Of a stretch of 57,166 nucleotides of DNA, positions 1,408 to 34,456 are shown in pieces (the first letter of the stretch is position 1; the number at the start of each line of letters is the position of its first letter). The DNA comes from a virus (lineage: Duplodnaviria; Caudoviricetes): the IMG/VR virus record IMGVR_UViG_3300030433_001734, positions 1-57,166 of that record; one strand, written 5' to 3'. Both the position numbers and the translations under genes were made by a program. The notes under the pieces were generated by a model. It saw only the letters and a program-made list of their open reading frames with translations. It was not told the origin of the DNA and searched no databases.

Positions 1408-2514
1408 CTAATCGTTTAAAGCATTATGACATAAATCTGCTACTTTATTCTCATCATCTTCAATAACTACAGCTTTTTTAACTGTTGCAAGTAAAGCTTC
1501 TTTTTGACTATAATCTAAATTAGAGCCTGCTATACCTGTAACAAGATCTTCTACTAAACCTGTAGATAGTTTCTTATACTGAGCCATCTTTAAAGAATCA
1601 TTTAAAGCAGTACATATCTGACCCACATATAACTGAGAGTATGCATCATTACCGCCTTCAATCACATTCTTAAGAGATTCAATTTGAGATCTAAGGTTAT
1701 TCTCTCTCTTAGATTCTAGTTTTGCTGCTATCTCTGCAACTCTACTAGGAGCAATTAATTCACATGCTTTTAATATTGCGCCAATATCATCTGTTTGCCA
1801 TACTAATTTAATAGCTTTAACAATTAGAGGAACTTGGAAAGCACTACGATCAGAAACAACGCCATATATAACGTCTAAGAATTTCTTCATATGTTTCTTC
1901 TCTATTGTACATGCAGCAATTTCTTGCTGACTAGGAACATTGATTGTTATTTCTTTAAGCTTTGACTCTTTCCACAGTTCGTGCATTGTTTCTACACCAA
2001 CTCTTTCTACTTTTTGTGTCAAAACAAAACGATCCCAGAAAGGATTTTCTAGTTCGTCATCAGGAATAACATTACATGAACCTGCCATTACTTGCCAGTT
2101 ACACTTTTTAATATGATCACCGTAGAAAATAGCTTTCTCTCTCATAATAGAAAGTAAAGTATTTCTAACACCAGACGTACCTTTGTCTACCTCATTAACT
2201 AAGATAAACTCTGCGTCTGCAATAGGAGCATCTAACTTGTATTCTTTATCTTCTAATAAAGACTTCATATTAACACGTCCCTTAATCTCCGAAGTTTTAG
2301 TACCTTCGTCAAGCTCGATAACAAAAGTCTTTTCTGCTACCTGCTCTCTACTATAATTATACTTAGCTGCAGCATAATCTAATAGTGTTTGTGTTTTAGC
2401 CACACCTGGCTCTCCTACCAGTAATACTGGTAATTTAGTACACTCACCGAGTGCTAGTAAGTTAAAAACTTCTTCTTTACCTACTAATCTAGTTTTGATT
2501 GGTCTTTTTTCCAT
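1408..2514 (-). CDS. MoxR/RavA-family AAA+ ATPase
   Basis: Walker A GEPGVAKT, Walker B-like ILVNEVDK, N-x-L-L and WDRF motifs; start placed at MEKRP just after the upstream stop. Confidence 0.8.
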   Translation of the reverse strand: MEKRPIKTRLVGKEEVFNLLALGECTKLPVLLVGEPGVAKTQTLLDYAAAKYNYSREQVAEKTFVIELDEGTKTSEIKGRVNMKSLLEDKEYKLDAPIADAEFILVNEVDKGTSGVRNTLLSIMREKAIFYGDHIKKCNWQVMAGSCNVIPDDELENPFWDRFVLTQKVERVGVETMHELWKESKLKEITINVPSQQEIAACTIEKKHMKKFLDVIYGVVSDRSAFQVPLIVKAIKLVWQTDDIGAILKACELIAPSRVAEIAAKLESKRENNLRSQIESLKNVIEGGNDAYSQLYVGQICTALNDSLKMAQYKKLSTGLVEDLVTGIAGSNLDYSQKEALLATVKKAVVIEDDENKVADLCHNALND

Positions 2515-8900: not shown

Positions 8901-10097
8901 TTAATTATTAAGATTAATATCTTCTACACTTGTTACCCAGTGGGTATTGTAGTCTTTAGCGGTTCTCTTCCTCACCCATGATAGCTCTTGGCTACCTGTG
9001 ACATATAAATTTACATATATTGCTGTCTTTCCTTCTTGTAATCTTAATGTTCTTCCTGTTCTTTGAATATTATCTAGAGCTTTAGAACTACCTGCACAGC
9101 AAATACCTAATGAACATTCTGGTACATTTAAACCAGCGTTCAAAGCTTTTACTGAGCTAAGTACATTGTAATCATTTTGATCACCAAAGTCATCTAATAC
9201 TTGTTGACGTTCTTTCTTCTTTAGTTTACTATGAAATAATAAACATTTATCGTCACCGATAGTATCTCTGACATCAGTAGCAAAATCAATACTCTCACTA
9301 AATACTAAAGCTTTCCTATCTGAAAATTTCTCTATAAGTTCTTTAGTAACTGTTAATTTGTTAGAAGCATTGTAACATAACTTCTTACGTTTCTGCATCA
9401 TCATGTAGAATACATTTGCCCATTTCTTCTTGTCTGGGTCATCAGAATTCTTCCACTTGCCTGCGTTTTCAAATGCTGAAAATCTACCACCTAGTTCAGC
9501 TACTGCCATATTATAGTAGTATTGAACTCCGTTGTATTTTTTAGCTTCTTCTGCAGTAAAAGGTACTCCTAAATTAAATACCTTATACACTGAGATTAAT
9601 CCCAGCGATACAGCCCTGTTTAAATCTGTAGTATAAACAATAGGTGCAAACATGTTTAGAAATTCTAAGTATTCTTCATTTTCAGGTGTTGTTGCAGTTA
9701 GACAGTATATCGTATCCCATGTATTGTGTTCATAGAACTTTCTATACTCAGGAGATAATGTAGTATGAACCTCATCAACAATAACAATGTTGTAATGCTC
9801 ATTTCTATATTTATATGCTGTCTGTATACACTGAAAATCTACTCGATCTAGTAAATGTTTTAGATCCCATTTCTCAAATTCATTTAACCATTCGTTATCT
9901 CGTAAGTTTTCAGTTGGTACAATTATTAGTGCACGTTTAAATGGTTCATCCTCTAAAATATCATTTAGAGCTAACAAACCCATTCTGGTTTTACCTAAAC
10001 CTGTAGCAGCAATAGATGTACCTTTCTTTCCAGCATCGTTCCATCGTAATAGATGTTCTCGCTGTTCTTTATCCTTATTTATATTTAATATATTCAT
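8901..10097 (-). CDS. Superfamily 2 helicase (DExH)
   Basis: ATGLGKT, DEVH, LTAT, GLNVP, QRTGRTLR. Confidence 0.85.
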   Translation of the reverse strand: MNILNINKDKEQREHLLRWNDAGKKGTSIAATGLGKTRMGLLALNDILEDEPFKRALIIVPTENLRDNEWLNEFEKWDLKHLLDRVDFQCIQTAYKYRNEHYNIVIVDEVHTTLSPEYRKFYEHNTWDTIYCLTATTPENEEYLEFLNMFAPIVYTTDLNRAVSLGLISVYKVFNLGVPFTAEEAKKYNGVQYYYNMAVAELGGRFSAFENAGKWKNSDDPDKKKWANVFYMMMQKRKKLCYNASNKLTVTKELIEKFSDRKALVFSESIDFATDVRDTIGDDKCLLFHSKLKKKERQQVLDDFGDQNDYNVLSSVKALNAGLNVPECSLGICCAGSSKALDNIQRTGRTLRLQEGKTAIYVNLYVTGSQELSWVRKRTAKDYNTHWVTSVEDINLNN

Positions 10098-10294
10098 TAA
10101 GTTTCGTATACTTTATTAAAAGTAACTAAAAAGATTCCCCATGTTCTTTTTTGTTCAAGACGGACAGGTTGGCCCCAAGGACACATCCCTGGAACCTTGT
10201 CCATCATATCTAAAATAGCATGCTTTAACCCTTCTAAAGTATCAGCCTCTACAAAGTTATATTCATCAATATCGTTATACATTACTTTTCCCAT
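10097..10294 (-). CDS. Hypothetical protein
   Basis: 65 aa ORF overlapping both neighbours. Confidence 0.5.
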   Translation of the reverse strand: MGKVMYNDIDEYNFVEADTLEGLKHAILDMMDKVPGMCPWGQPVRLEQKRTWGIFLVTFNKVYET

Positions 10295-13641: not shown

Positions 13642-13767
13642 AAAAAAAGATCACCTACGACTTGCACGCCAAGGTCCACTTCGCCACATATTGCGGTTTA
13701 GTTTTTACACCGTTGCTCACGAGGAAACTGTGCACAGTTATTGTCGGGGCAGAATAGACAGTGATCT
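13642..13767 (-). ncRNA. Candidate ~120-nt structured RNA ending in a U-run
   Basis: Closing stem AGATCAC/GTGATCT followed by a U-run; nested CGAC/GTCG and GTGCA/TGCAC pairs; GC-richer than flanks, no ORF. Confidence 0.35.
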
Positions 13768-13770
13768 ATT

Positions 13771-13817
13771 AAGTAAAGAGAGAAGCCCATGTACATGTTT
13801 CCGTTAAACTTCTCTCT
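13771..13817 (-). terminator. Stem-loop downstream of the 13824 gene
   Basis: 9-bp stem AGAGAGAAG/CTTCTCTCT, 23-nt loop, short U-rich tail. Confidence 0.4.
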
Positions 13818-13823
13818 ATTTAG

Positions 13824-14324
13824 TTAAAATATTGCAAAACCACCTGAATGGTCTGCAAATGTAGCAAATTCTAGTGCATTTTCTACACTAAATGGATAAT
13901 TACTTCTCCAGTCATTTTCATCTAAATCATGTCTTTCTAAATTATAAGATGTACAATATAGATCAAGGTTACCTGATCTTTCTGCTTCTCTTATTCTTTT
14001 AGCTATCTTTTTAGATTTAAGTTTAGATATAAAATGACCATCATTAAATGTACCTGAAGTAATATCTTTTTCTGTTAATATATCACTACATAAATCAGTG
14101 ACATACATCCATAAAGGGCGCCACCACCATACATTATTTCTAAAATAAGTACCAGGTGACAGTGCTTCTATTGTCTGCTCATAAGCCCATACTTTTTCGT
14201 GCTTATCTGCAGTATCCATGTCTGGATCAGATTGAACTAGTTTAATCTGTTTGTGAATACTATTTATTTTCTTCACATTTTCTCTAGGCACAATGGGTGC
14301 CTTACCATATAAGTCAAAGCCCAT
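13824..14324 (-). CDS. Hypothetical phage protein (start corrected to MGFDLYG)
   Basis: FRNNVWWWRPLW and YPF...F..SGGF motifs; the track start at 14387 lies inside the tmRNA. Confidence 0.7.
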   Translation of the reverse strand: MGFDLYGKAPIVPRENVKKINSIHKQIKLVQSDPDMDTADKHEKVWAYEQTIEALSPGTYFRNNVWWWRPLWMYVTDLCSDILTEKDITSGTFNDGHFISKLKSKKIAKRIREAERSGNLDLYCTSYNLERHDLDENDWRSNYPFSVENALEFATFADHSGGFAIF

Positions 14325-14356
14325 ATTAATTAGTTTAAAGTTAATACTAGATGTAG

Positions 14357-14764
14357 TGGAGATGGGGGGAATCGAACCCCCGTCCATCCATGTTTGTTAA
14401 AGTACAGATGTACAAGCTTTTAAGTAATTGGTTTTAATTTCTACACCATCGCGTGGTGTCCCGCATATATTACTTACACATTTGGGCCGCGAAGATATTC
14501 CTAGAAGGTACCACTTCCTCGGAGACTGGTAGCTATTAACAGGCCAGTCTATTGTATTAAGTGACAACTCAATATCATAAAACACTTTTTGAAATAACTA
14601 CCTAGGCAGCTAAAGCAAGTTCTACACTTTGTAGTGGTAGAGCACTAGAGTGAGACTCAGCTCCTATCGGAGTGAGCTTCACCACAGAATAACTATTTTC
14701 GCCAGTTAAAAAGCATCGTGCTTGCCGTACAATCGTCTGCATAGTGTCAAAACCAGTCATCCCC
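14357..14764 (-). ncRNA. ssrA: tmRNA (transfer-messenger RNA), 408 nt, CCA not encoded
   Basis: 5' GGGGATGACTGGTTTTGAC; 3' GGACGGGGGTTCGATTCCCCCCATCTCCA; acceptor stem GGGGATG/CATCTCC with G3.U70 and discriminator A; tag frame 14703-14602 GENSY...ALAA-TAG. Confidence 0.93.
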
Positions 14765-15553: not shown

Positions 15554-15946
15554 CTAAAATTCATCTTCTTTAGTATCATTAATTATCTTTTCTAACTGTT
15601 CTTTGGACACTATGTCCTCAGGTTTAATTGATTCTTTGCGCATTCCAATTGCAAGATCAGCAACCTGTCTTCTCATACCTTCCATTTGATCAATGTGTTT
15701 TGCTTCTGCGGTTCCCATACCAGCAACAAACACAAAACATATTAATTCTTCTAATGTGTTGTATGTATTTTGTTGTAATACTGCCTCTAATATTTCAGAT
15801 AGTCTAGCTTTGTGGATAGGCTGTATACTATTCATTACTTTACCAAAATGTTCTATTTGATCATCAGTAACTTGAAATAAAGATTGTATCGTTTTGTCAT
15901 CATGACGAAGAGAAATCTGTTTAACTAGTTTGTCTAAATTTTCCAT
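15554..15946 (-). CDS. Hypothetical protein
   Basis: 130 aa ORF. Confidence 0.65.
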   Translation of the reverse strand: MENLDKLVKQISLRHDDKTIQSLFQVTDDQIEHFGKVMNSIQPIHKARLSEILEAVLQQNTYNTLEELICFVFVAGMGTAEAKHIDQMEGMRRQVADLAIGMRKESIKPEDIVSKEQLEKIINDTKEDEF

Positions 15947-15965
15947 ACGATTACAAAGTGTTAAT

Positions 15966-16034
15966 AAAAAAAAGAGATACCAAATATAACAACTAAATCC
16001 CTGAAAATCAAGAAAATAGTTGTTAAAATGGTAT
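15966..16034 (-). terminator. Long stem-loop plus U-tract, overlapping a minus-strand TATATTTG promoter motif
   Basis: ATACCA/TGGTAT and TAACAACTA/TAGTTGTTA stems, then CTCTTTTTTTT; TATATTTG at 15988-15981. Confidence 0.45.
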
Positions 16035-16278
16035 AATTATTAAAAACAAAAACCGAAGTACAGCGTCTAATTTTGACAAGTATCTGTTCAATCTAGTATG
16101 CAGTTTCATCTGTTGTAATCAGAATCATGGCAGTGCAGAATAGTCCTTTGGCCCTTTGGGTAATGACGAGTCTTGAGTAATTGTTTTCCAGTATTTAGTT
16201 TCATTTGCGTAATGGGGTTGCAAATTACTTACATTCTACGCCACGTGAAGGCAACTGTTTATTGTAGAACATATAATC

Positions 16279-16395
16279 CTAGCAAATAAATACTAGAATT
16301 ATTAAAATACAGATGACTAATCTGTAAAATAGGATTTCACGCTTGCATTTTGCAAGATCCCATTTAAGTCGTTTAATAAGTTTGACCTTATTCAT
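16279..16395 (-). CDS. Small basic single-TM protein (38 aa, not in ORF track)
   Basis: MNKVKLIKRLKWDLAKCKREILFYRLVICILIILVFIC, starts just after the GOLLD-like RNA. Confidence 0.55.
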   Translation of the reverse strand: MNKVKLIKRLKWDLAKCKREILFYRLVICILIILVFIC

Positions 16396-16403
16396 AATTA
16401 TAT

Positions 16404-17097
16404 ATAATGGGCTGAGATTACACCATTATGCACACATCTTTCGTTGTTTAGTTCCTATGTAGAGGTTTACAACTTATCCACTATACTCTCATATAGTAAT
16501 GTGCAGTGACGGTTAGTTAGACTAACCACTTCTAATGTTATTACCTACTCACGAGCTACTCAAACGAGAAATAAAGCCGCTAAACTCTAAATCAGTCTTT
16601 CATTCGCAAACAGAATCACCTTGAGGGATCATCCACTCTCCTTCTAGAGGAGATTTAGTCACCTTTCAGTAATAACAGGCCAACACTTGTTCTTCTTTGA
16701 TTATTAATTGTTTTGCACAGTACTGTCCAGGATGTGGTTGGTCCACAAATGCTTCGTCACCTTTTGAGTGACAAAATACATTACATCCCAGGTATAACTT
16801 TCCATCGTTATAGTATTTCATGATAATCTTATTCCCTAAGACTCTCATTTATACTGATATATACGCCTCACTAGCTTGGATACTAGATTGACACTATATC
16901 TACAGTTTTTCTTATTGATGTCACCATCTCACATCCCAATAATCTTAGGATGCACACATACACTCAGACGATCGTCCTCTGTTGCCGTGTGATATACTGC
17001 TTGCTTAGATTGACCATAATTAAATGGCAACAAATGGTGTTTGTGCTCTTGCACCACTGTCTTTAGTCACATTACTGTGATTATCGGGCTAAGCCCC
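16404..17097 (-). ncRNA. GOLLD-like giant ornate ncRNA (~700 nt; 5' end approximate)
   Basis: Hairpin-dense stretch with no credible ORF. Motifs UUUUGUCACUCAAAAGGUGACGAA, GUGGUUAG..CUAACCG, GUGGAUAA and terminal-loop UAAUCUCAG occur in the order I recall for the GOLLD 3' domain; not verified by search. Confidence 0.75.
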
Positions 17098-17134
17098 AAT
17101 ATTTTATAATAATTATTTAATAATTATTTGTTAC

Positions 17135-17169
17135 AAAAAAGAAAAAGAAGGAGCACACGAATGTGCCCC
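17135..17169 (-). terminator. Intrinsic terminator
   Basis: GGGGCACA-TTCG-TGTGCTCC followed by TTCTTTTTCTTTTTT. Confidence 0.85.
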
Positions 17170-17181
17170 AACTTATATCAT

Positions 17182-17712
17182 TTAGTTACCGAATACATCA
17201 TCTGATGTAGATTCAGTAGCTGGCTGAGTATCAGTCTCTTCGAAGTCAGATACTTCGTCAAAAGCAGCTTCACCAGCAATAACACCGTCAGATGTCATTA
17301 GTTGGTGACCTTGAGCTTTAAAGACAGATGTTATAGTCTCGCCCTTCAATACTACTGAAGTATAAGACATAACTTCACGACCGTCAACTGTATAAGGAAC
17401 AACAGATTTAGTCACGATGTCGCCAGGTATATTCTTACCGACAAATTGTTGGATTAAAGCAGGGTTACCAGCTTTCCAAACAGGATTGTCTTCAGAGTCA
17501 GTTGTTTGAGCAATGACTCTAGTTCTTTCTGCGCCAAAAGGGTTAGAAGGGTCTCTAAAAACAGCGATGTAGTATTTTCTACCGTCTGAAGTTAGATTTA
17601 GTTTACCGTTGATGCCGTCTTTATCATCAACTAATTGTGCATCAGCTTTTGCTGATAATCTTGTAGCTACTAATTGTAACTGAGCATTTGGATCGATTGT
17701 GTTCATGTCCAT
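17182..17712 (-). CDS. Hypothetical protein, beta-rich with acidic tail (possible ssDNA/RNA-binding)
   Basis: 176 aa ORF with its own terminator; tail ends STSDDVFGN. Confidence 0.7.
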   Translation of the reverse strand: MDMNTIDPNAQLQLVATRLSAKADAQLVDDKDGINGKLNLTSDGRKYYIAVFRDPSNPFGAERTRVIAQTTDSEDNPVWKAGNPALIQQFVGKNIPGDIVTKSVVPYTVDGREVMSYTSVVLKGETITSVFKAQGHQLMTSDGVIAGEAAFDEVSDFEETDTQPATESTSDDVFGN

Positions 17713-26198: not shown

Positions 26199-28703
26199 AT
26201 GTCATCATATACATTTCCACAACAGAGGTTAAGCTATGCGGCTAAAAAGAAGAACGATTTTCAATGGGGTAAAGATGTACTAGATACTCTTGAACTATAT
26301 GGAACAGAACAGGCTTCTTCAGCTGGCTTTCAAGGTGCAGAAGCACGTAAGAGAGTAAACTATGATTTATTTAACGGTATATTAAACATTGCAGACTTCG
26401 AATATGTATGCAAGCCTTATGGTATAGAAGGTACAGGAGAGCTTCCTGCAGAGATTAGACATTACGATATTATATCTCCTAAACTACGTGTGTTATTTGG
26501 TGAAGAAATAAAAAGACCATTTAATTATAAAGTAGTAGCTACAAATCCAGAAGCAATTACAGAGCGAGAAAAAGCACAGGCTGATATGTTGCGTGAGTAT
26601 ATGCAACAAAAAGTGCAAGCGCAAATCCAACAAGCAATGATGGAAGCTGGCATTAATCCTCAGGGAGGACCACAAGATGCAGCTGATCCAGAAGCAATGC
26701 AGCAGCAGCAAATGCAAATGCAGCAGATACAACAACAGATGACCCCTCCTCAAATCGAAGAGTACATGAAAAGAGAGTACCAAGATCAAAGAGAAATAAT
26801 GGGTAATCAAATTTTAGGGTATCTGAGAAGAGAACAAAAATTAAGAGAAAAATTTGTTAAAGGGTGGAAGCATGGTCTTATTACATCAGAAGAAATTTAT
26901 TATGTAGGTATTGTTAATGGAGAGCCTATTGTTAATACAGTAAATCCATTATACTTTACACACGATAAAGATCCTGATCTAGATTATATAGAAGACGGCC
27001 AATGGGCAAAATATGCAATGAGAATGACTCCAGGATCTGTAGTAGATACCTTTGGAGAATACTTAACTCAAAAACAAATTAAAGATCTATACTCGGATTC
27101 TGCCGCTTCAGGCACGTCCCACGCACTTGGTTCCAAAGAATTTTCCTATGACGCGGACCAATTATTTTCAGAGTCTTTCCATACAGATTGGGACCCTTCG
27201 AGTACTAGAGACTCCAGCGCACGTGGATACATTAATGTAATACACTGTGAATGGAGATCTCTGAAAAAAATAGGATTCTTAACATTTGTAGATGATGATT
27301 TCTCTGAGCAAGAAACGATAGTTGATGAAACATATACGTTAAATAAAGCAGGAGGAGACATTAAAATTAAATGGGAGTGGATTCCTGAAGTATGGGAAGG
27401 TACAAAAATAGGTGACGATGTATATTGTAATATACGTCCTAAACCAAATCAGCATAAAGATATTGATAATTTATATTCTTGTAAGTTAGGTTATGTAGGA
27501 TCAACTTATAATAATTTAAATGCTTATCCTATATCTTTAATTGATAGAATGAAACCTTACCAGTATCTATACAATATTATGATGTATAGATTAGAATTAG
27601 ATTTAGCATCGGATAAAGGTAAAAAATTCTTAGCCGATATTAATCAGATACCATCGTCAATGGGTATTGATATGGAAAAGTGGTTATATTACTTTGATGC
27701 TTTAGGTATAGCATTTATTAATCCTAAAGAAGAAGGTAAGAGAGGAGAACAAAATCACTTTAATCAATGGCAGTCTATTGACTTATCTATGGCTCAAACA
27801 ATCCAACAAAAAATTGGATTATTAGAATATTTAGAGCAACAATGTAGCGAGGTATCTGGAATAACAAAACAACGAGAAGGCCAGGTTGGACCAAACGAAC
27901 TGGTAGGTAATACTGAACAAGCAGTTGTTCAATCTTCAGCAATTACTGAAGAACTTTTTTACACACATAATTCTATTAAAGGTAGGGTCCTAGAGGCGTT
28001 GTTAGATACAGCTAAGGTTTGTTGGGGTGATGGTAAAACCAAAAAAATCCAATATATCTTAGATGACATGACTACCCATTTGCTTACGGTAGATCCAATC
28101 CAATTACCAGAATCATCTTTTGGAATCTTTGTTTCTGATTCTTCTAAAGACAGAGAGCTTTATTTAACTATGAAACAGTTAGCACATGCAGCTTTACAGA
28201 ATCAAACTGCAGAATTGTCTGATGTTATTAAAATGCTTTCTACTGATTCTACTGCTGAAATTAAAACTTTACTTGAAAAAGCTGAAGATACTAGAAAAGC
28301 TAGAGAAGAACAAATGCAACAAATGGGGCAACAAACTCAACAGCAACAGATCGAAGCTCAGAAAGAAATTGAAGCTCAAAAAGCTCAGCTTAAGAAATAC
28401 GAAATTGATCAAGATAACGAAACTAAAATCGCAGTTGCAGAAATCAATGCATTTAGAGGAAAAGAAGATCAGGATATAAACGGTAATCAAATACCTGATC
28501 AACTTGAAATAGAAAAACTAAAAGCACAGATAGACAACAACGATAGAAAGTTAGATCTTGAGAATCGTAAATTAGACGTCAAAGAAAAAGAAATGGAGAT
28601 GAAAGATCGACAAGCTGATAAAAAAATGAGAGAAGATCGTAAAAATAAAGAAGCAGATAGAAAGTCTAAGGAAAGACAGGCTAAAAAGAAAGATTCTAAA
28701 TAA
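26199..28703 (+). CDS. Portal protein
   Basis: 834 aa directly after TerL; FPQQRL start, WIPEVWEGTKIG, SGITKQREG, Q-rich coiled-coil tail, typical of crAss-like portals. Confidence 0.85.
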   Translation: MSSYTFPQQRLSYAAKKKNDFQWGKDVLDTLELYGTEQASSAGFQGAEARKRVNYDLFNGILNIADFEYVCKPYGIEGTGELPAEIRHYDIISPKLRVLFGEEIKRPFNYKVVATNPEAITEREKAQADMLREYMQQKVQAQIQQAMMEAGINPQGGPQDAADPEAMQQQQMQMQQIQQQMTPPQIEEYMKREYQDQREIMGNQILGYLRREQKLREKFVKGWKHGLITSEEIYYVGIVNGEPIVNTVNPLYFTHDKDPDLDYIEDGQWAKYAMRMTPGSVVDTFGEYLTQKQIKDLYSDSAASGTSHALGSKEFSYDADQLFSESFHTDWDPSSTRDSSARGYINVIHCEWRSLKKIGFLTFVDDDFSEQETIVDETYTLNKAGGDIKIKWEWIPEVWEGTKIGDDVYCNIRPKPNQHKDIDNLYSCKLGYVGSTYNNLNAYPISLIDRMKPYQYLYNIMMYRLELDLASDKGKKFLADINQIPSSMGIDMEKWLYYFDALGIAFINPKEEGKRGEQNHFNQWQSIDLSMAQTIQQKIGLLEYLEQQCSEVSGITKQREGQVGPNELVGNTEQAVVQSSAITEELFYTHNSIKGRVLEALLDTAKVCWGDGKTKKIQYILDDMTTHLLTVDPIQLPESSFGIFVSDSSKDRELYLTMKQLAHAALQNQTAELSDVIKMLSTDSTAEIKTLLEKAEDTRKAREEQMQQMGQQTQQQQIEAQKEIEAQKAQLKKYEIDQDNETKIAVAEINAFRGKEDQDINGNQIPDQLEIEKLKAQIDNNDRKLDLENRKLDVKEKEMEMKDRQADKKMREDRKNKEADRKSKERQAKKKDSK

Positions 28704-31700
28704 TGAGAAAGCATATAAATGCAACTACTGCACAAGCCAGAAATAAAGGTTTAGAGGGTGCCAGTCCTGGTACCTCAGCTTCTCTTATATACACAGATCA
28801 TAAAGGACGTACTCTTGAGGGACGTCAATCTTATCCCGTGCGCGTATACGCAGATGGCGCGTATGTAGGTATTTTAAATCCTGGAGAAACTATAGATACT
28901 TTTGCTGCAAGTCGTATAGACGAAATGCCTGTTTATAAAAAAGGAGGTAAAATAAAAGGATCTGACGGTAAAGCATGCTGGAAAGGATATAGATTTGTTG
29001 GAACTAAAAATGGTAAAGACAGATGTGTTAAAGTAATGCAGGATGGTACTGTTGTAGAACAACCTGATTCTGGTCCAGAAATAGTAGCAAATCCAATTGA
29101 TTATACACAATATGAATATATTCCTTCTTCTCATTTTGAGATACCTACAGGAGAATTTACCTATAATTTTAGGAGATATATGGGAGACGATGAAAACGGA
29201 GATCCTATATTTGTAAACGAAGAAAGAACAGGAACACACGATCCTAATTGGTATTCTCCAGATTTTGATCCATATGAGTATTATAAATCAGGACAATATG
29301 AAGGTATGGATTTTAGAGATACTCCTATACGTGATTATGAGAATAATCCCTATATGAAGAATGAAAAAATGACGCATCCTTTAGTGTGGGATGAAGATAG
29401 GCTTATAAAAGAAAACAGAAAAAGGTTTAATCAGTCAGTAATAAATGATATATGGAATGAAGACGGAACTTTAAAACCTGAGTATGAACAAAGATTAGGA
29501 TCAAAAAGATACCTACGTCCTTTTGGGCCTAACTACGAAGACGCTCCTAATGCACAAACAAGCGAAGGAAGATGGGCGTCAGATTGGTTTGAAGGCACTA
29601 AATCAGGGTGGGGAAAGCCAGGTAGTGATAGCAGTTGGATGTATAATGAAGAAGCAGGAACATGGCATACTTTTGTTCCAAATGTCGGAGGAGAAGAATG
29701 GGACAATGGCGACTTTCAAGATTTAACTGAAAAAGAATTAAAAAAATTATATAAGGTATATAAAGAATACCCAGGATTTGGAGATATATCTAAAAAAGAG
29801 TTTATAGAAAGATATAAATCAGGAGATACATTTCATCCTCAAATTGCTGGTGTTGAGCAAGAAAAAGCCTGGATAAAAACTTTTGAAGATAAAGTACAGC
29901 CTTTTAAACAAGGAGAATTTGATGCACAAAAAGATTTTTTTGATGGTGCTATTAGTTCTGATTTATATAGAGAAAAATTAATTGCACAAGGATATGAAAA
30001 TGTAGACGAGATAATATCACAAAGAGAAGCAGCATTAGCTAATGCTAATATGAAGTATGAAAGTACTGCTGAGAGTTATGCAGATGAATATGTATCTACA
30101 GGAGGAGGAGATCAAAGTGGATATAGAAAAGGACTAGAAGGTGAGTATGATAAGCACACTAATGATATATATTCTATCCTTGACAAAAGGCAAATAATAT
30201 ATGATTTAATTGATCAAGGAAAAATAGATATAAGTAATTTAGGTAAATGGGATGCTCAGCAGATTTTGGGTATGTATAATGATTATACTCCTTTTGGAGA
30301 TGAAGCGCCTCCTACTGAGCATGGTTTTTATACTACGGGAGAGAGAGACGCTCTTTTTTGGTCACAGTGGGCAAATAAAGGAATTAACATGTCTGACTAT
30401 TTAAATAGTAAAATAAATGAAGGAAAAACTGGATCAAGAGCTTATGTAGCTAGCCCAGACGGAAAAACAGTTATATCTCCAAGACAATTACAACAACTTA
30501 ATATAGATTTAGGAGGAGAAGGAACTACTGAAGAACTTCATTCTTTTTTAGATGAGGTTTCTGCACACGAGCTTGGTCATCAAATGGGAGCAGTAAATGC
30601 TTCAGAAAAGGTACCCTACGGTCTTAATAAAAATGATCAAAACACTATCCATAGATTAATGGAAGAAAGTGGAATAAACTTAGATGACCTCAACTGGCAC
30701 GATAGAGCAGCATACGAAAGAAAAGCAGATCTTGATGCATTAAGATGGAAAATGTATAATACTATAGGATATGACTATAGAACAACTCCAATGACAAAGG
30801 AGATTCTTCAAGAGTATAAAAACTATATTAAAGAAAACCCAATTCCTAGTTTAGTAAATGATAGGAATTTTGAATTTTTTAAAGATGATAAATTAATAGA
30901 ATTTAATAATACTGTTGCTGATGCTACTAATGAAATAGGAGGTGATGATCTTATGTTTATGGAGCTTACAGCAAATGCTAGATACGGAGGCCCTGCTAAA
31001 TATCAAAATGCAGGTAACGTAGTATCTGATTCTACAAATGTTCAAATACAAAGTCCATATGATATAGAAATGGATCTTATCAAAAGTAACTTTGAAAAGA
31101 CTTTTTCTAAAGAGGATAGGGATTACATAAATTTTATAAATACTAGAACTCCTTTTAGAGATGAAACTACTACAGGAGATGATCCTGAACTTTTTTATTT
31201 AGATTTATATAATACAGAGTTAACAGCTGAAGAATTATTAGAATATTATTTATGGAAAGATGAGATGGCTTACAGAAGATCTCTTTTAAATAAAACTAAT
31301 ATAGAAGAAGAGTTACATAAACTAGATATGGATTTGGGTGCATATGATGTCCAAGGATGGTGGAAGTCTGGAGACTATGAAAACACTGATACAGATGGGC
31401 ACGGTACTGATAAATGGAAAAAACCAAACCATCCTACATTTAGTAATGAATCTAAATACGCATCAAACTACGAGTTACCTGAAGGAGAAGAAGACACAAG
31501 AAGTAATTATTTAGGAGGAACTTGGAGTGAGACAGGAGCTTATACTCCTTCTATACATAATATGTACACTAACGAAAGACTTCATTGGGAATTTAATAGA
31601 GAACCACATCGCCCTGAGCATTTATATATGGGTAATGATTTAATTTATAATCATCAGCATTTTCCTATAATTTATGATTTTGAAAAAACAAAAACTTTAG

Positions 31701-34456
31701 ATAATTATGAAGATGGAGGAGGAGTAAAAAAACAAGAAGAAATTCCTCAGTATATAGAAGAGCCTCTTACAGCAAAGATGCAAGAAAAACTTGATAAAAT
31801 GTATAGAGATAATCTAGGAGCTCCTCAAGATCTTGAAATTAATACATTTGATACAAGTACAGAAGACGGTATGATAAAATATTTAAAACATACCGAAAAC
31901 AGCATTATGAAAGGATATGACCCTAAAACAGATAGGTGGTATCCTCACGATGATGGAGCAGGATATATGACTATAGGATATGGGCACAATATAAACTCGC
32001 ACAAAAAAGATACAGGATATACTCTTGAAGAATTACAAAAGAATGGACTTAGTTCAGCTGAAGTCGAGGATCTTTTAAAATATGATATGAAAAGAGAATC
32101 AGACTTAATTGCAAAAAATGTACCTGGATGGGAAGATCTAAATACACAACAGAAAAATGCATTACTTGATATTCAATTTAATATTATAGGAAATGTTTGG
32201 ACTGAGTTTCCTTCGTTTACTGAAGCTGTTGTTAATAAAGACTGGAAGAATGTAGTTCTACATGGATCACGTGCAGAGTTTGCTAAAAATCCAGACGGTA
32301 CTTTTAAACCTAATCAAAGGAATACTGCTTTTTATAAAAGTATGGTAGAGCCTATGATGAATGCGTGGAGACCTAAAACTAAAAATCCAAACTATGTAGA
32401 AAAATTAGATTTGAGTCATATAACGAGGATTCCTCCTGCTGTTCGAGATAAAACATATGTAGACATGCCTATTTTTCCTACAATAGAAATAGACAAAATA
32501 GAAGAGTTTGAAGATGGATCTGAAGTAACAGGAGATCCTCCATCATACAATTTACAAGATTACTTTACAAACAATTTAATTGAAACAACAACTCGTTATC
32601 CTAATTTTTCTGATCAAGATATTTACAAATTTTATTTAGAGAATAAAAATCCAGAAGAAGGCTTTAGTGTTTTCTTTCCTGATGTTTCTGTTCTAAACGA
32701 ACCTCTTAACGAGTTGACTCCTGTTCCTTTTTACTCTTCTAATTTTTCTACTGCAATAGATACACCAAATTTTTACAGAGAAACTGGAACTCTATGTGCT
32801 TCAAATGGACAATTAATAGAAGGATGCGCAGGAGGATTACAAATAGCATATGAATATAATACTCCTTTAAGTAAAGATCAAGTAAGAAATGTAAATGGTA
32901 TAAAAGGAAATGCATGGCAAATGCATCAAAACGTAGTAGATGCTGGAGGACAATCTTTGTTTAATTACTCAAATTTATTAGGAATAGACGAAGACTGGAG
33001 ATCAAATAATTATAATATGAGCAGCGATGATTTATTTTATGAATTTAACAAAGCTAGAAACAGTTATAATCCAAATGATCTTTCAGGATTAGAAGGTGCT
33101 TTACAAGTTGGAGATTTAGTTGATATATTATACGATGGATCAAGTTATCAACCAGAAGCAATTCAAGATGGATTTGGTACTAACATAAATTCTCATGTAG
33201 GTAAAATTACTGAGAAAAATGGACAGCTATATGTTACTCATAATATTAAAGGTAAATGGTATTCTGATAAATTAGATAATGTATTACAAAATCAAAGATA
33301 CAGTACGGGAGGAAAAATGATGATTGTTGGAGGATACAGACCTAGATATGAATCAGGTTTAATTGATGGTGTTTCGTATAAAAACAGAATAGAAAATCCA
33401 GTAGACGGATATAATAGTTTAGTATCTATGGATTATCTTAATCATCTTGGTATGACAATGCCTAATATACAAAGCGATTTTGGATTTAGTGATAGTGATA
33501 GTTCATTAGTTGCAAAAGCTAGCTATGGAACATTTGGAAAAGAAAGTACTTTTGCAACAGGAGCAAGATGGGATGCTAAAAATTATTCAAGAGATTTATT
33601 GCGTGGTTACAAAGGATTAAACGATCAAGAAGGATTTACACTATCTCCTTTGCATGCTACTATTTCTTATTTGTTAGATAAAAAATTTACAGATGGTACT
33701 TTAGACATGGATAGTTTAAGTGAAGGAATGACTCAAATAAAATTAGATGAGTTTGTAAAAGACGATCATATAGCATCACTTTTTGCAGCTTATAATATTA
33801 CAGACCCCGATGTTTTATACACAACTGAAGGATCAAGTCGAGCAACTGCATTAGTTCATTCTTTAAATTTAAAATTAATCAATGATTATTTTTCTGGTCA
33901 TGATTTAAGCGATCAAGTAAAAATGAATATGATGCACATGGCTTTTAACAAAGGAATAGATAATGTTTTAAGAGATTTTGTAGATGATGAAAATATAGTA
34001 ACTCCAGCTAGTTTCCAAAAAGGACATGACCTTTATAAAAATATACATACAAATGAAGAGTCATATTCATATACTCCTAATAAAATAAGCGGCTATATTG
34101 ACTATGATCATTCAAAAATGAAAGCTAATTCTAATCGTGTGGCTAATTATGATGTTGAATCTTTATCAGGATTTGAACAAGGATACATGGATTTAATGGA
34201 AGAGTATGAAAAAAAGAAAGAAGCATTTAATCAAAGCATTAACGAAAATAAAAGAGAGTTTAATACAAGCCAAAGAAAGATAATGAATAAGGTAGATAAA
34301 CTTATAAAGAAAGCAAATAAAACAAAAGACATAAAGTATATTAATAAAGCAAAACAAAAATTAGAGAATTTTGCTTCTGATATAAATGATGATTTAAACA
34401 AAGAAACTAAAACAGTAAAGAGAGGACTAAAAAAGATTAAATCTTTATTTAGATAA
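28703..34456 (+). CDS. Large virion cargo protein with several putative hydrolase domains
   Basis: HELGH zincin motif, lysozyme-like E...D...TIGYGH, Cys/His (GCAGG..GNAW..GDLV..SHVG) domain, SLT-like ES..GMTQ..AFNKG. Confidence 0.65.
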   Translation: MRKHINATTAQARNKGLEGASPGTSASLIYTDHKGRTLEGRQSYPVRVYADGAYVGILNPGETIDTFAASRIDEMPVYKKGGKIKGSDGKACWKGYRFVGTKNGKDRCVKVMQDGTVVEQPDSGPEIVANPIDYTQYEYIPSSHFEIPTGEFTYNFRRYMGDDENGDPIFVNEERTGTHDPNWYSPDFDPYEYYKSGQYEGMDFRDTPIRDYENNPYMKNEKMTHPLVWDEDRLIKENRKRFNQSVINDIWNEDGTLKPEYEQRLGSKRYLRPFGPNYEDAPNAQTSEGRWASDWFEGTKSGWGKPGSDSSWMYNEEAGTWHTFVPNVGGEEWDNGDFQDLTEKELKKLYKVYKEYPGFGDISKKEFIERYKSGDTFHPQIAGVEQEKAWIKTFEDKVQPFKQGEFDAQKDFFDGAISSDLYREKLIAQGYENVDEIISQREAALANANMKYESTAESYADEYVSTGGGDQSGYRKGLEGEYDKHTNDIYSILDKRQIIYDLIDQGKIDISNLGKWDAQQILGMYNDYTPFGDEAPPTEHGFYTTGERDALFWSQWANKGINMSDYLNSKINEGKTGSRAYVASPDGKTVISPRQLQQLNIDLGGEGTTEELHSFLDEVSAHELGHQMGAVNASEKVPYGLNKNDQNTIHRLMEESGINLDDLNWHDRAAYERKADLDALRWKMYNTIGYDYRTTPMTKEILQEYKNYIKENPIPSLVNDRNFEFFKDDKLIEFNNTVADATNEIGGDDLMFMELTANARYGGPAKYQNAGNVVSDSTNVQIQSPYDIEMDLIKSNFEKTFSKEDRDYINFINTRTPFRDETTTGDDPELFYLDLYNTELTAEELLEYYLWKDEMAYRRSLLNKTNIEEELHKLDMDLGAYDVQGWWKSGDYENTDTDGHGTDKWKKPNHPTFSNESKYASNYELPEGEEDTRSNYLGGTWSETGAYTPSIHNMYTNERLHWEFNREPHRPEHLYMGNDLIYNHQHFPIIYDFEKTKTLDNYEDGGGVKKQEEIPQYIEEPLTAKMQEKLDKMYRDNLGAPQDLEINTFDTSTEDGMIKYLKHTENSIMKGYDPKTDRWYPHDDGAGYMTIGYGHNINSHKKDTGYTLEELQKNGLSSAEVEDLLKYDMKRESDLIAKNVPGWEDLNTQQKNALLDIQFNIIGNVWTEFPSFTEAVVNKDWKNVVLHGSRAEFAKNPDGTFKPNQRNTAFYKSMVEPMMNAWRPKTKNPNYVEKLDLSHITRIPPAVRDKTYVDMPIFPTIEIDKIEEFEDGSEVTGDPPSYNLQDYFTNNLIETTTRYPNFSDQDIYKFYLENKNPEEGFSVFFPDVSVLNEPLNELTPVPFYSSNFSTAIDTPNFYRETGTLCASNGQLIEGCAGGLQIAYEYNTPLSKDQVRNVNGIKGNAWQMHQNVVDAGGQSLFNYSNLLGIDEDWRSNNYNMSSDDLFYEFNKARNSYNPNDLSGLEGALQVGDLVDILYDGSSYQPEAIQDGFGTNINSHVGKITEKNGQLYVTHNIKGKWYSDKLDNVLQNQRYSTGGKMMIVGGYRPRYESGLIDGVSYKNRIENPVDGYNSLVSMDYLNHLGMTMPNIQSDFGFSDSDSSLVAKASYGTFGKESTFATGARWDAKNYSRDLLRGYKGLNDQEGFTLSPLHATISYLLDKKFTDGTLDMDSLSEGMTQIKLDEFVKDDHIASLFAAYNITDPDVLYTTEGSSRATALVHSLNLKLINDYFSGHDLSDQVKMNMMHMAFNKGIDNVLRDFVDDENIVTPASFQKGHDLYKNIHTNEESYSYTPNKISGYIDYDHSKMKANSNRVANYDVESLSGFEQGYMDLMEEYEKKKEAFNQSINENKREFNTSQRKIMNKVDKLIKKANKTKDIKYINKAKQKLENFASDINDDLNKETKTVKRGLKKIKSLFR

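Follow-up and report, generated by a model that had tools for sequence, protein, structure and literature searches.

A probable compact GOLLD RNA gene in an uncultured marine crAss-like phage

Few natural RNAs are known that build cages free of protein. GOLLD is one of them, and the closest described systems include two members of the family treated in recent papers. The GOLLD of env-38 is 833 nucleotides (nt) long, has a 5′ domain of 420 nt and forms a D7 14-mer nanocage, whose half-shells are held together through self-kissing contacts at the two P21 loops (PMC12286853); that of Streptococcus agalactiae, at 700 nt, is without P9, P11a-c and P21b and forms a dodecamer (PMC12990946). A 2026 review ties such helix differences to the oligomer state (PMC12990946) and a variable 5′ domain is a trait of the family (PMC12286853; PMC12990946). 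Here we describe an RNA of ~695 nt, at 16404-17097 on the minus strand of a virus record from IMG/VR (IMGVR_UViG_3300030433_001734), that is very probably, judging from its sequence and its relatives, a GOLLD gene in working order, carried by an uncultured marine crAss-like phage. The whole record, 57,166 base pairs (bp) in length and estimated to be 61% complete, is called the window below.

The window RNA comes close to the S. agalactiae GOLLD, with which it shares the Rfam family, the length (~695 vs 700 nt), a reduced 5′ domain and a single hairpin in the P21 arm; the two differ in their hosts, Firmicutes there and a Bacteroidota-type phage host here. With env-38, the window RNA shares a marine origin and a conserved 3′ domain, in which the UCAAAAG loop, GAAAGGUGACUAA and a terminal loop that is invariant are found together with the pseudoknot and long-range helices; a common 5′ junction motif would be linked through two typical GOLLDs that lie downstream of tRNA-Met (loci L007 and L008). 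It is, however, ~140 nt shorter than env-38, with a 5′ domain of ~305 rather than 420 nt, a linker of ~48 nt, one P21 hairpin in place of L21a and L21b, and no upstream tRNA. The GOLLD of Mycobacterium, which Morgado reportedly described in 2020, is said to lie inside tRNA arrays, where the linker can hold a tRNA; it belongs to the same family and has a mobile-element or phage context, whereas the window and two near-complete carriers of our RNA are without a tRNA gene. ROOL RNA (RF03087) is likewise a large phage RNA with RNA-only cages and a similar genomic habit, yet it differs in sequence and fold; its Rfam model matched nothing in the window at the gathering threshold, and nothing in 15900-17250 even at E<=10.

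Identity and extent of the RNA

An Rfam 15 scan of the whole window at gathering thresholds returned two families only, GOLLD and transfer-messenger RNA (tmRNA). The GOLLD model RF02032 matched 16409-16791 of the minus strand over its full length (model positions 1-416 of 416) with 218.6 bits (E 1.5e-60; gathering cut-off 150 bits), a result repeated in a separate genome search of the window with RF02032, and a permissive Rfam scan of 15900-17250 found nothing credible beyond GOLLD. The match spans only the last 383 nt of the conserved RNA, which is consistent with the split into a variable 5′ and a conserved 3′ part given in PMC12286853. Conservation among relatives sets in abruptly at GGGGCUUAGCCC (17097) and extends through the terminal hairpin (16404), and the blocks of the 3′ domain, that is, the UCAAAAG loop, GAAAGGUGACUAA, GAGUA twice, GUGGAUA and the terminal loop GUAAUCUCAG, all lie at upper-case consensus positions of the model. 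The minimum free energy of the RNA corresponds to z = -3.43, with none of 20 shuffles folding as well. Its parts are as follows.

16409-16791, minus strand: conserved 3′ domain, matched by RF02032 positions 1-416
16792-17097, minus strand: compact 5′ domain of ~305 nt, with 15 helices by RNAalifold
16772-16756, minus strand: GUCAC/GUGAC stem with loop UCAAAAG, present in the sequence
16679-16726, minus strand: short, A-rich, variable linker of ~48 nt, from the first hairpin of the 3′ domain to the long-range helix
16653-16637, minus strand: UCUCCU/AGGAGA stem, present in the sequence
16558-16602 (approximate), minus strand: P21-region arm, a single hairpin, placed by Rfam alignments of the window and L006 and by local folds
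16527-16511, minus strand: GGUUAGU/ACUAACC stem, present in the sequence
16404-16429, minus strand: terminal hairpin AUAAUGG/CCAUUAU, its loop GUAAUCUCAG, called L27 in the published structure, being invariant

A preliminary description, made by a model from the letters alone, had proposed a GOLLD-like RNA at these very coordinates, placed after a strong terminator, free of any credible open reading frame (ORF) and carrying many stems, four of them named, whose motifs were matched to the GOLLD 3′ domain. The full-length match on the minus strand bears out the proposal, and the two comparisons that it had put forward both favour it, GOLLD being matched in Rfam and ROOL unmatched, and covariation with homologues being strong in both domains. 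The coordinates equal the conserved unit among relatives, a terminator-like hairpin at 17169-17150 does precede the RNA, and each of the four stems is found in its place as a helix of the Rfam GOLLD alignment or of a covariation scan. The stem of the terminal hairpin is present at 16429-16404, and its loop is UGUAAUCUCAGC, slightly larger than had been written.

The gap between the stop of the upstream gene for a protein of 176 amino acids (aa), at 17182, and the next conserved ORF is also as empty as described. From the hairpin at 17169-17150 to the start of the next conserved gene (15946), no ORF reaches 40 aa except two minus-strand frames inside the RNA, at 16666-16848 (60 aa) and 16929-17057 (42 aa). 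These two could be listed in favour of a region encoding small proteins, but stops break the 60-aa frame in 12 of 12 relatives and the 42-aa frame in 11 of 12, and the substitutions track base pairs, not codons; we give that explanation almost no credence. The region is non-coding.

Covariation and kinship of the two domains

Homologues were collected from IMG/VR. A search with the upstream 176-aa protein returned four contigs (L003-L006), all four with a GOLLD in the same position (212-222 bits), and a 20-nt DNA pattern from the 5′ half returned 17 loci, 13 of them GOLLD: four on the contigs just named and nine new ones, confirmed by the Rfam GOLLD model at 198-226 bits. Three further carriers (L059, L096 and L097) were found among relatives by TerL, so that the carriers total 17 contigs including the window (16 related IMG/VR contigs), L022 and L025 being the same over the region. 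The other pattern loci (L012, L013, L018 and L026) were without an Rfam GOLLD match and their nhmmer matches were short and at the pattern itself; in L012 and L013 these fall inside long ORFs, L018 and L026 share the short motif match of L013, and all four were dropped as chance. An earlier DNA pattern from the 3′ domain had found only the two typical GOLLDs, L007 and L008, and 15900-17200 had no blastn match in a set of 50,697 phage records.

Compensatory base changes among these related phage contigs support both GOLLD domains. For the 5′ domain, RNAalifold with 13 sequences gave 80 pairs in 15 helices, 33 of them with compensatory changes, and 98.6% of the cells are paired; in controls whose partners were slid by 1-3 columns the share falls to 31-43%, and these slid controls have 3-7 compensatory pairs. 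The covariation score was reached by none of 500 shuffles, a count that overstates the significance because the sequences are related, the slid controls being the fairer comparison. In the 3′ domain (15 sequences, 84 pairs), changes on both sides were seen in 52 pairs, and the helices are also recovered by an independent covariation scan. Two pseudoknot or long-range pairings, given here by window coordinates, are kept according to the scan: GGUGAC (16663-16658) with GUCACU (16510-16505), and CCAAC (16741-16737) with GUUGG (16684-16680), the latter with three covarying pairs. A candidate helix between UGAGUG (16966-16961) and CACUCA (16770-16765) was judged spurious because its bases are already in a covarying stem.

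The kinship of the 5′ half is less immediate. Rfam models the 3′ half of GOLLD only, the 5′ half of the window RNA is ~115 nt shorter than that of env-38, and a search by nhmmer with the clade's 5′ profile gave marginal, collinear matches (E 0.012-0.016) to L007 and L008, two loci nearly identical to each other; all three points would suit a distinct class of large RNA that shares a GOLLD-like 3′ module and has an unrelated 5′ half. A covariance model of the clade's central 5′ junction (R1; 112 positions, 26 pairs), however, finds the same typical GOLLDs collinearly, matching L007 with 29.7 and L008 with 27.1 bits over its full length, on the right strand and 169 nt upstream of their 3′ domains; the best score in loci without GOLLD is 20.7 bits, and the E-values of R1 are rough. 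Moreover, a variable 5′ domain is itself characteristic of the family (PMC12286853; PMC12990946). We consider a distinct class very unlikely and hold, with moderate confidence based on these model matches, that the 5′ half of the clade is homologous to the 5′ domains of typical GOLLDs.

The 3′ domain departs from the Rfam consensus in two places. About 25 consensus positions are absent from the linker, whose length differs among relatives, and the Rfam alignment shows the first hairpin after it to be shortened. In the P21 arm, all 15 of the clade members have one hairpin where the consensus has two (L21a, L21b), which is not disqualifying for a GOLLD because that of S. agalactiae is also without P21b (PMC12990946). 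The P21 loop holds a 4-nt palindrome in 9 of the 15 sequences: GAUC in L010, L014, L016 and L020, CUAG in L011 and L023 (and in L015, scanned outside the 15) and GGCC in L059, L096 and L097. Such switching of the palindrome across five subclades is, going by the loop sequences, as expected for a self-kissing loop.

In the stem of the terminal hairpin one pair covaries (GC in 10 sequences, CG in five), and the AUCUCA of the loop is invariant in 13 of 13. The preliminary description had paired this loop with a UGAGAU element, which is indeed located at 16931-16926. The 6-bp pairing itself was rejected: complete in only three of 13 relatives, it is broken in the others, where the site reads UGAGCU or UGAGUU (9 of 13) or is deleted (L011), and the variable base covaries instead with the base it faces in a local hairpin (GAUG/CAUC, GCUA/UAGC, GUUG/CAAC; alignment columns 208/217). 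In the published structure, the L27 terminal loop pairs inside the 3′ domain (PMC12286853). The complementarities UGAG/CUCA and CUGAG/CUCAG are conserved, both sides being invariant, and the terminal loop may make a contact via the invariant UGAG.

The phage and the neighbourhood of the RNA

PHROGs names a portal, a TerL and a major head protein in the window, and, further from GOLLD, a DNA polymerase, with Pfam naming a helicase there as well; the RNA stands directly after the terminator and heads a leftward block with the helicase and DNA polymerase genes. The TerL matched 160 phage records, the named ones nearly all crAss-like or infecting Bacteroidota, and its best matches belong to Crassvirales (Suoliviridae) of the International Committee on Taxonomy of Viruses, at 37.6%, with Cellulophaga phi14:2 and Bacteroides crAss phages lower. 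The major head protein matched 142 phage records, the best being the Flavobacterium phage FpV4 group at 43%. The two proteins thus match crAss-like phages of Bacteroidota hosts, as the preliminary description had it, and support a crAss-like phage with a probable Bacteroidota host. Near-identical DNA is present in marine metagenomes. RF02032 had no match in FpV4 and five named Crassvirales genomes, a negative that is trustworthy because the same search finds GOLLD in the window and in the related genome G001. In the literature, we found no paper tying GOLLD to crAss-like or Bacteroidetes phages; the 2009 description or its supplements may list such cases. As a separate observation, a 1917-aa protein encoded right after the portal gene (28703-34456, plus strand) has only a lysozyme-like stretch, at residues ~1070-1180, and tblastn found no match to it in the 50,697 phage records. 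The features around the RNA, in the direction of the minus strand, are these.

17182-17712, minus strand: 176-aa gene, the syntenic marker upstream of GOLLD, without a Pfam or PHROG family
17150-17169, minus strand: intrinsic-terminator-like hairpin after the 176-aa gene, its stem of 8 pairs (5 G-C) accompanied by a T run
17106-17134, minus strand: weak sigma-70-like promoter match GTAACA-17-TATTAT (9/12), 9 nt upstream of the RNA start
16278-16394, minus strand: 38-aa ORF, starting 9 nt after the GOLLD hairpin
15947-16277, minus strand: conserved ORF-free spacer, with no Rfam family
14354-14764, minus strand: phage tmRNA, RF00023 at 66.6 bits (cut-off 47), with the tag AESHSSALPLQSVELALAA predicted by ARAGORN
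13824-14387, minus strand: conserved 187-aa ORF after the tmRNA

The 176-aa gene is also found in relatives without GOLLD. The terminator-like hairpin with its T run is kept in L003 and L004, and in L005 with a different stem. For the neighbouring small proteins, Pfam and PHROGs named no family and gave no SmpB-like match.

The tmRNA, a neighbour already named in the preliminary description, lies 1.6 kb downstream of GOLLD and is called by both Rfam and ARAGORN; the same two programs find no tRNA in the window, again as described. Proximity to tRNA genes is typical of GOLLD, without defining it. ARAGORN also found no tRNA in G001 and G005, carriers that are 97-100% complete (searched in 20-kb pieces, so that a gene split by a boundary could escape). 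On the same strand and downstream of GOLLD, a tmRNA is present in the window, L003, L005 and L022/L025, and L006 has a weak match only (9.2 bits, E 0.88), truncated where the contig stops. Because the first 34 nt of the 187-aa ORF overlap the 3′ end of the tmRNA, translation probably begins further inside the frame. A second, permuted tmRNA called by ARAGORN (13733-14447) is probably false, as it overlaps this conserved ORF. A different arrangement was seen in L059, where 83 nt (2188-2270, minus strand), 115 nt upstream of a divergent GOLLD, match the tmRNA model with 51.8 bits; the match holds only the acceptor and T-arm (tRNA-like) ends, without a tag reading frame, and ARAGORN does not call it.

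Several relatives have a self-cleaving element at the other end of the RNA. Pistol ribozymes, scoring 67.6-69.4 bits (cut-off 34.5), were found at the following places.

L006, 5257-5323: pistol ribozyme
L022, 11396-11471 (the same in L025): pistol ribozyme
L010, 837-912: pistol ribozyme

They end 1-2 nt, or 43 nt, before helix 1 of GOLLD, and in these contigs the RNA is preceded by small ORFs, with no hairpin that aligns with the window terminator (judged by alignment). The pistol ribozyme cleaves in the strand after its P3 stem (PMC4604425). No pistol ribozyme was found in the window. We infer from the relatives that the RNA would need a defined 5′ end right at helix 1, which in the window the terminator and the AT-rich start region would provide; the clade would then have two interchangeable routes to a defined 5′ end, its own start or a pistol ribozyme, and tRNA processing may be a third for typical GOLLDs behind a tRNA (L007, L008). 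We found no paper connecting GOLLD with pistol ribozymes, a search that again leaves the 2009 description and its supplements as places that may list such. The L022 pistol reads GAU near the cut site where the consensus has GGU.

The spacer downstream of the 38-aa ORF is a subject of its own. It is ~82% identical in three relatives, the next protein being only 41-45% identical, and RNAalifold on four sequences gave 78 pairs, 12 of them compensatory. At its 3′ end stand TTTG, 19 nt and ACACTTTG, just before the ATG at 15946, an arrangement that resembles the Bacteroidetes promoter form, and the spacer may hold another structured RNA together with the promoter of the gene that follows. Its first 87 nt (16184-16270, minus strand, with CCTTCACGTGGCG) recur at 97.7% identity in L098 (2801-2887) and L099 (9611-9697), one phage sharing the element having a TerL only 25% identical; no GOLLD was seen in the examined sequence of L098 and L099, and a motif related to the element lies upstream of GOLLD in L014, L016 and L020. 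The element could be mobile or regulatory, or a cassette boundary. In L099, ~380 nt after the element, a twister-P1-like match (10081-10135; 43.4 bits, below the cut-off of 67.2; E 7e-8) lies at the close of a stretch without a long forward-strand ORF, just before the next gene.

Distribution, assembly and meaning

Several observations weigh against a working GOLLD gene and are best considered together. The first is its patchy occurrence among the six related genomes of at least 92% completeness that were compared for its presence.

G001: TerL 82% identical to that of the window, GOLLD present
G003: TerL 81% identical, GOLLD absent
G002: TerL 80% identical, GOLLD absent
G004: TerL 79% identical, GOLLD absent
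G005: TerL 73% identical, GOLLD present
G006: TerL 38% identical, GOLLD absent

With two of the six carrying the RNA and four lacking it, GOLLD is dispensable. Patchiness, and a length below that of typical GOLLDs, could also mark a decaying relic without present function; but the match covers the whole model and has few non-standard pairs, compensatory changes occur in 85 of the 164 predicted pairs, random indels or broken helices were not seen in relatives, and the RNA is kept in phages (L011, L015, L016) whose TerL is only 37-38% identical to that of the window. A relic is, we think, highly improbable, slightly more so than a separate RNA class. Relative to the 176-aa gene, the RNA of L059 is on the opposite side and precedes another gene, and GOLLD is, to judge from these genomes, an accessory, movable cassette in one genomic region and no core gene.

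The second group of observations concerns the ends of the transcript. The promoter is only a weak consensus match, and it is only a hint because promoter-like sites in the region (23) are no more frequent than in shuffles (19.8); a canonical Bacteroidetes promoter, looked for by eye upstream of GOLLD, was not found. There is no terminator-like site between 16404 and the next genes and the 38-aa ORF starts right after the RNA, so that the 3′ end is undefined. The same facts, with the ORF kept in L003, L004 and L006 (tblastn, 63-72% identity), would suit a structured region that serves chiefly as a cis-acting leader for the message downstream, from the 38-aa ORF onward, and not as a free-standing RNA. 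Yet L005 has the RNA and lacks the ORF, a subclade (L011, L014, L016 and L020) has unrelated sequence 3′ of the RNA, the RNA of L059 precedes a different gene, and the solved GOLLDs act as RNA-only assemblies (PMC12286853). A leader is unlikely on this evidence, though it has a better claim than the other alternatives.

The remaining points touch the partner gene, the expression and the cage. No tmRNA was found downstream of GOLLD in the examined sequence of L016, L020 and L023, and ARAGORN found none in G005. Of the words sampled from a 1401-nt stretch, contigs from marine RNA libraries contain a share of up to 0.51, for which carry-over of DNA is also possible; sequencing runs with small shares of the stretch were left out. 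In the subclade of the window (the window, L003-L006 and L022), the P21 loop is UUUAGCGG and holds no 4-nt palindrome, so one self-kissing half-shell contact of the env-38 type may be missing. Finally, the oligomer state predicted below is an analogy, not a computation.

If the locus is a working GOLLD gene, homology to the two solved GOLLDs predicts that its transcript of ~695 nt folds into two domains, a 5′ cap and a 3′ ring, and that copies of it assemble by themselves, with no protein, as a closed cage of two layers. A 12-mer-like cage would be expected rather than a 14-mer of the env-38 type because the RNA is compact, with a 5′ domain of ~305 nt and one P21 hairpin, like the GOLLD of S. 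agalactiae. What such a cage might do is speculative. Kretsch et al. cite ribosome pull-downs and a rise of GOLLD expression during lysis (PMC12286853) and, because of these citations and the tmRNA neighbourhood, we propose that the accessory GOLLD could act on the host's machinery for translation during infection; it might, for instance, hold or shield ribosomes or RNAs that resemble tRNA. Such an action would be independent of phage tRNA genes, which are absent from these phages; their absence argues against a role tied to phage tRNAs.

Overall, the compact GOLLD adds to the known range of the family and leaves unchanged what GOLLD is. The clade provides a compact natural variant of ~695 nt, known in 17 sequences with rich covariation, and close relatives with and without the RNA (two of the six near-complete genomes having it) lend themselves to natural comparison. 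Both the tmRNA that recurs nearby and the 5′ pistol ribozyme are handles on the maturation of the RNA and on a possible link to the ribosome, and carrier phages without tRNA genes weaken the idea of a cage that serves phage-encoded tRNAs. More tentatively, and with more doubt than belief, we suggest that in this tRNA-less crAss-like clade GOLLD could be a free-standing, exchangeable cassette, whose 5′ end is fixed either by a start site of its own or by a pistol ribozyme, with a recurring partner in the tmRNA, either in full length or as an 83-nt tRNA-like domain. If so, the association of GOLLD with tRNA arrays would reflect a common RNA processing and a common target, the ribosome, and not a need for phage tRNAs, and compact GOLLDs with one P21 hairpin would form the cage with different subunit numbers or contacts.

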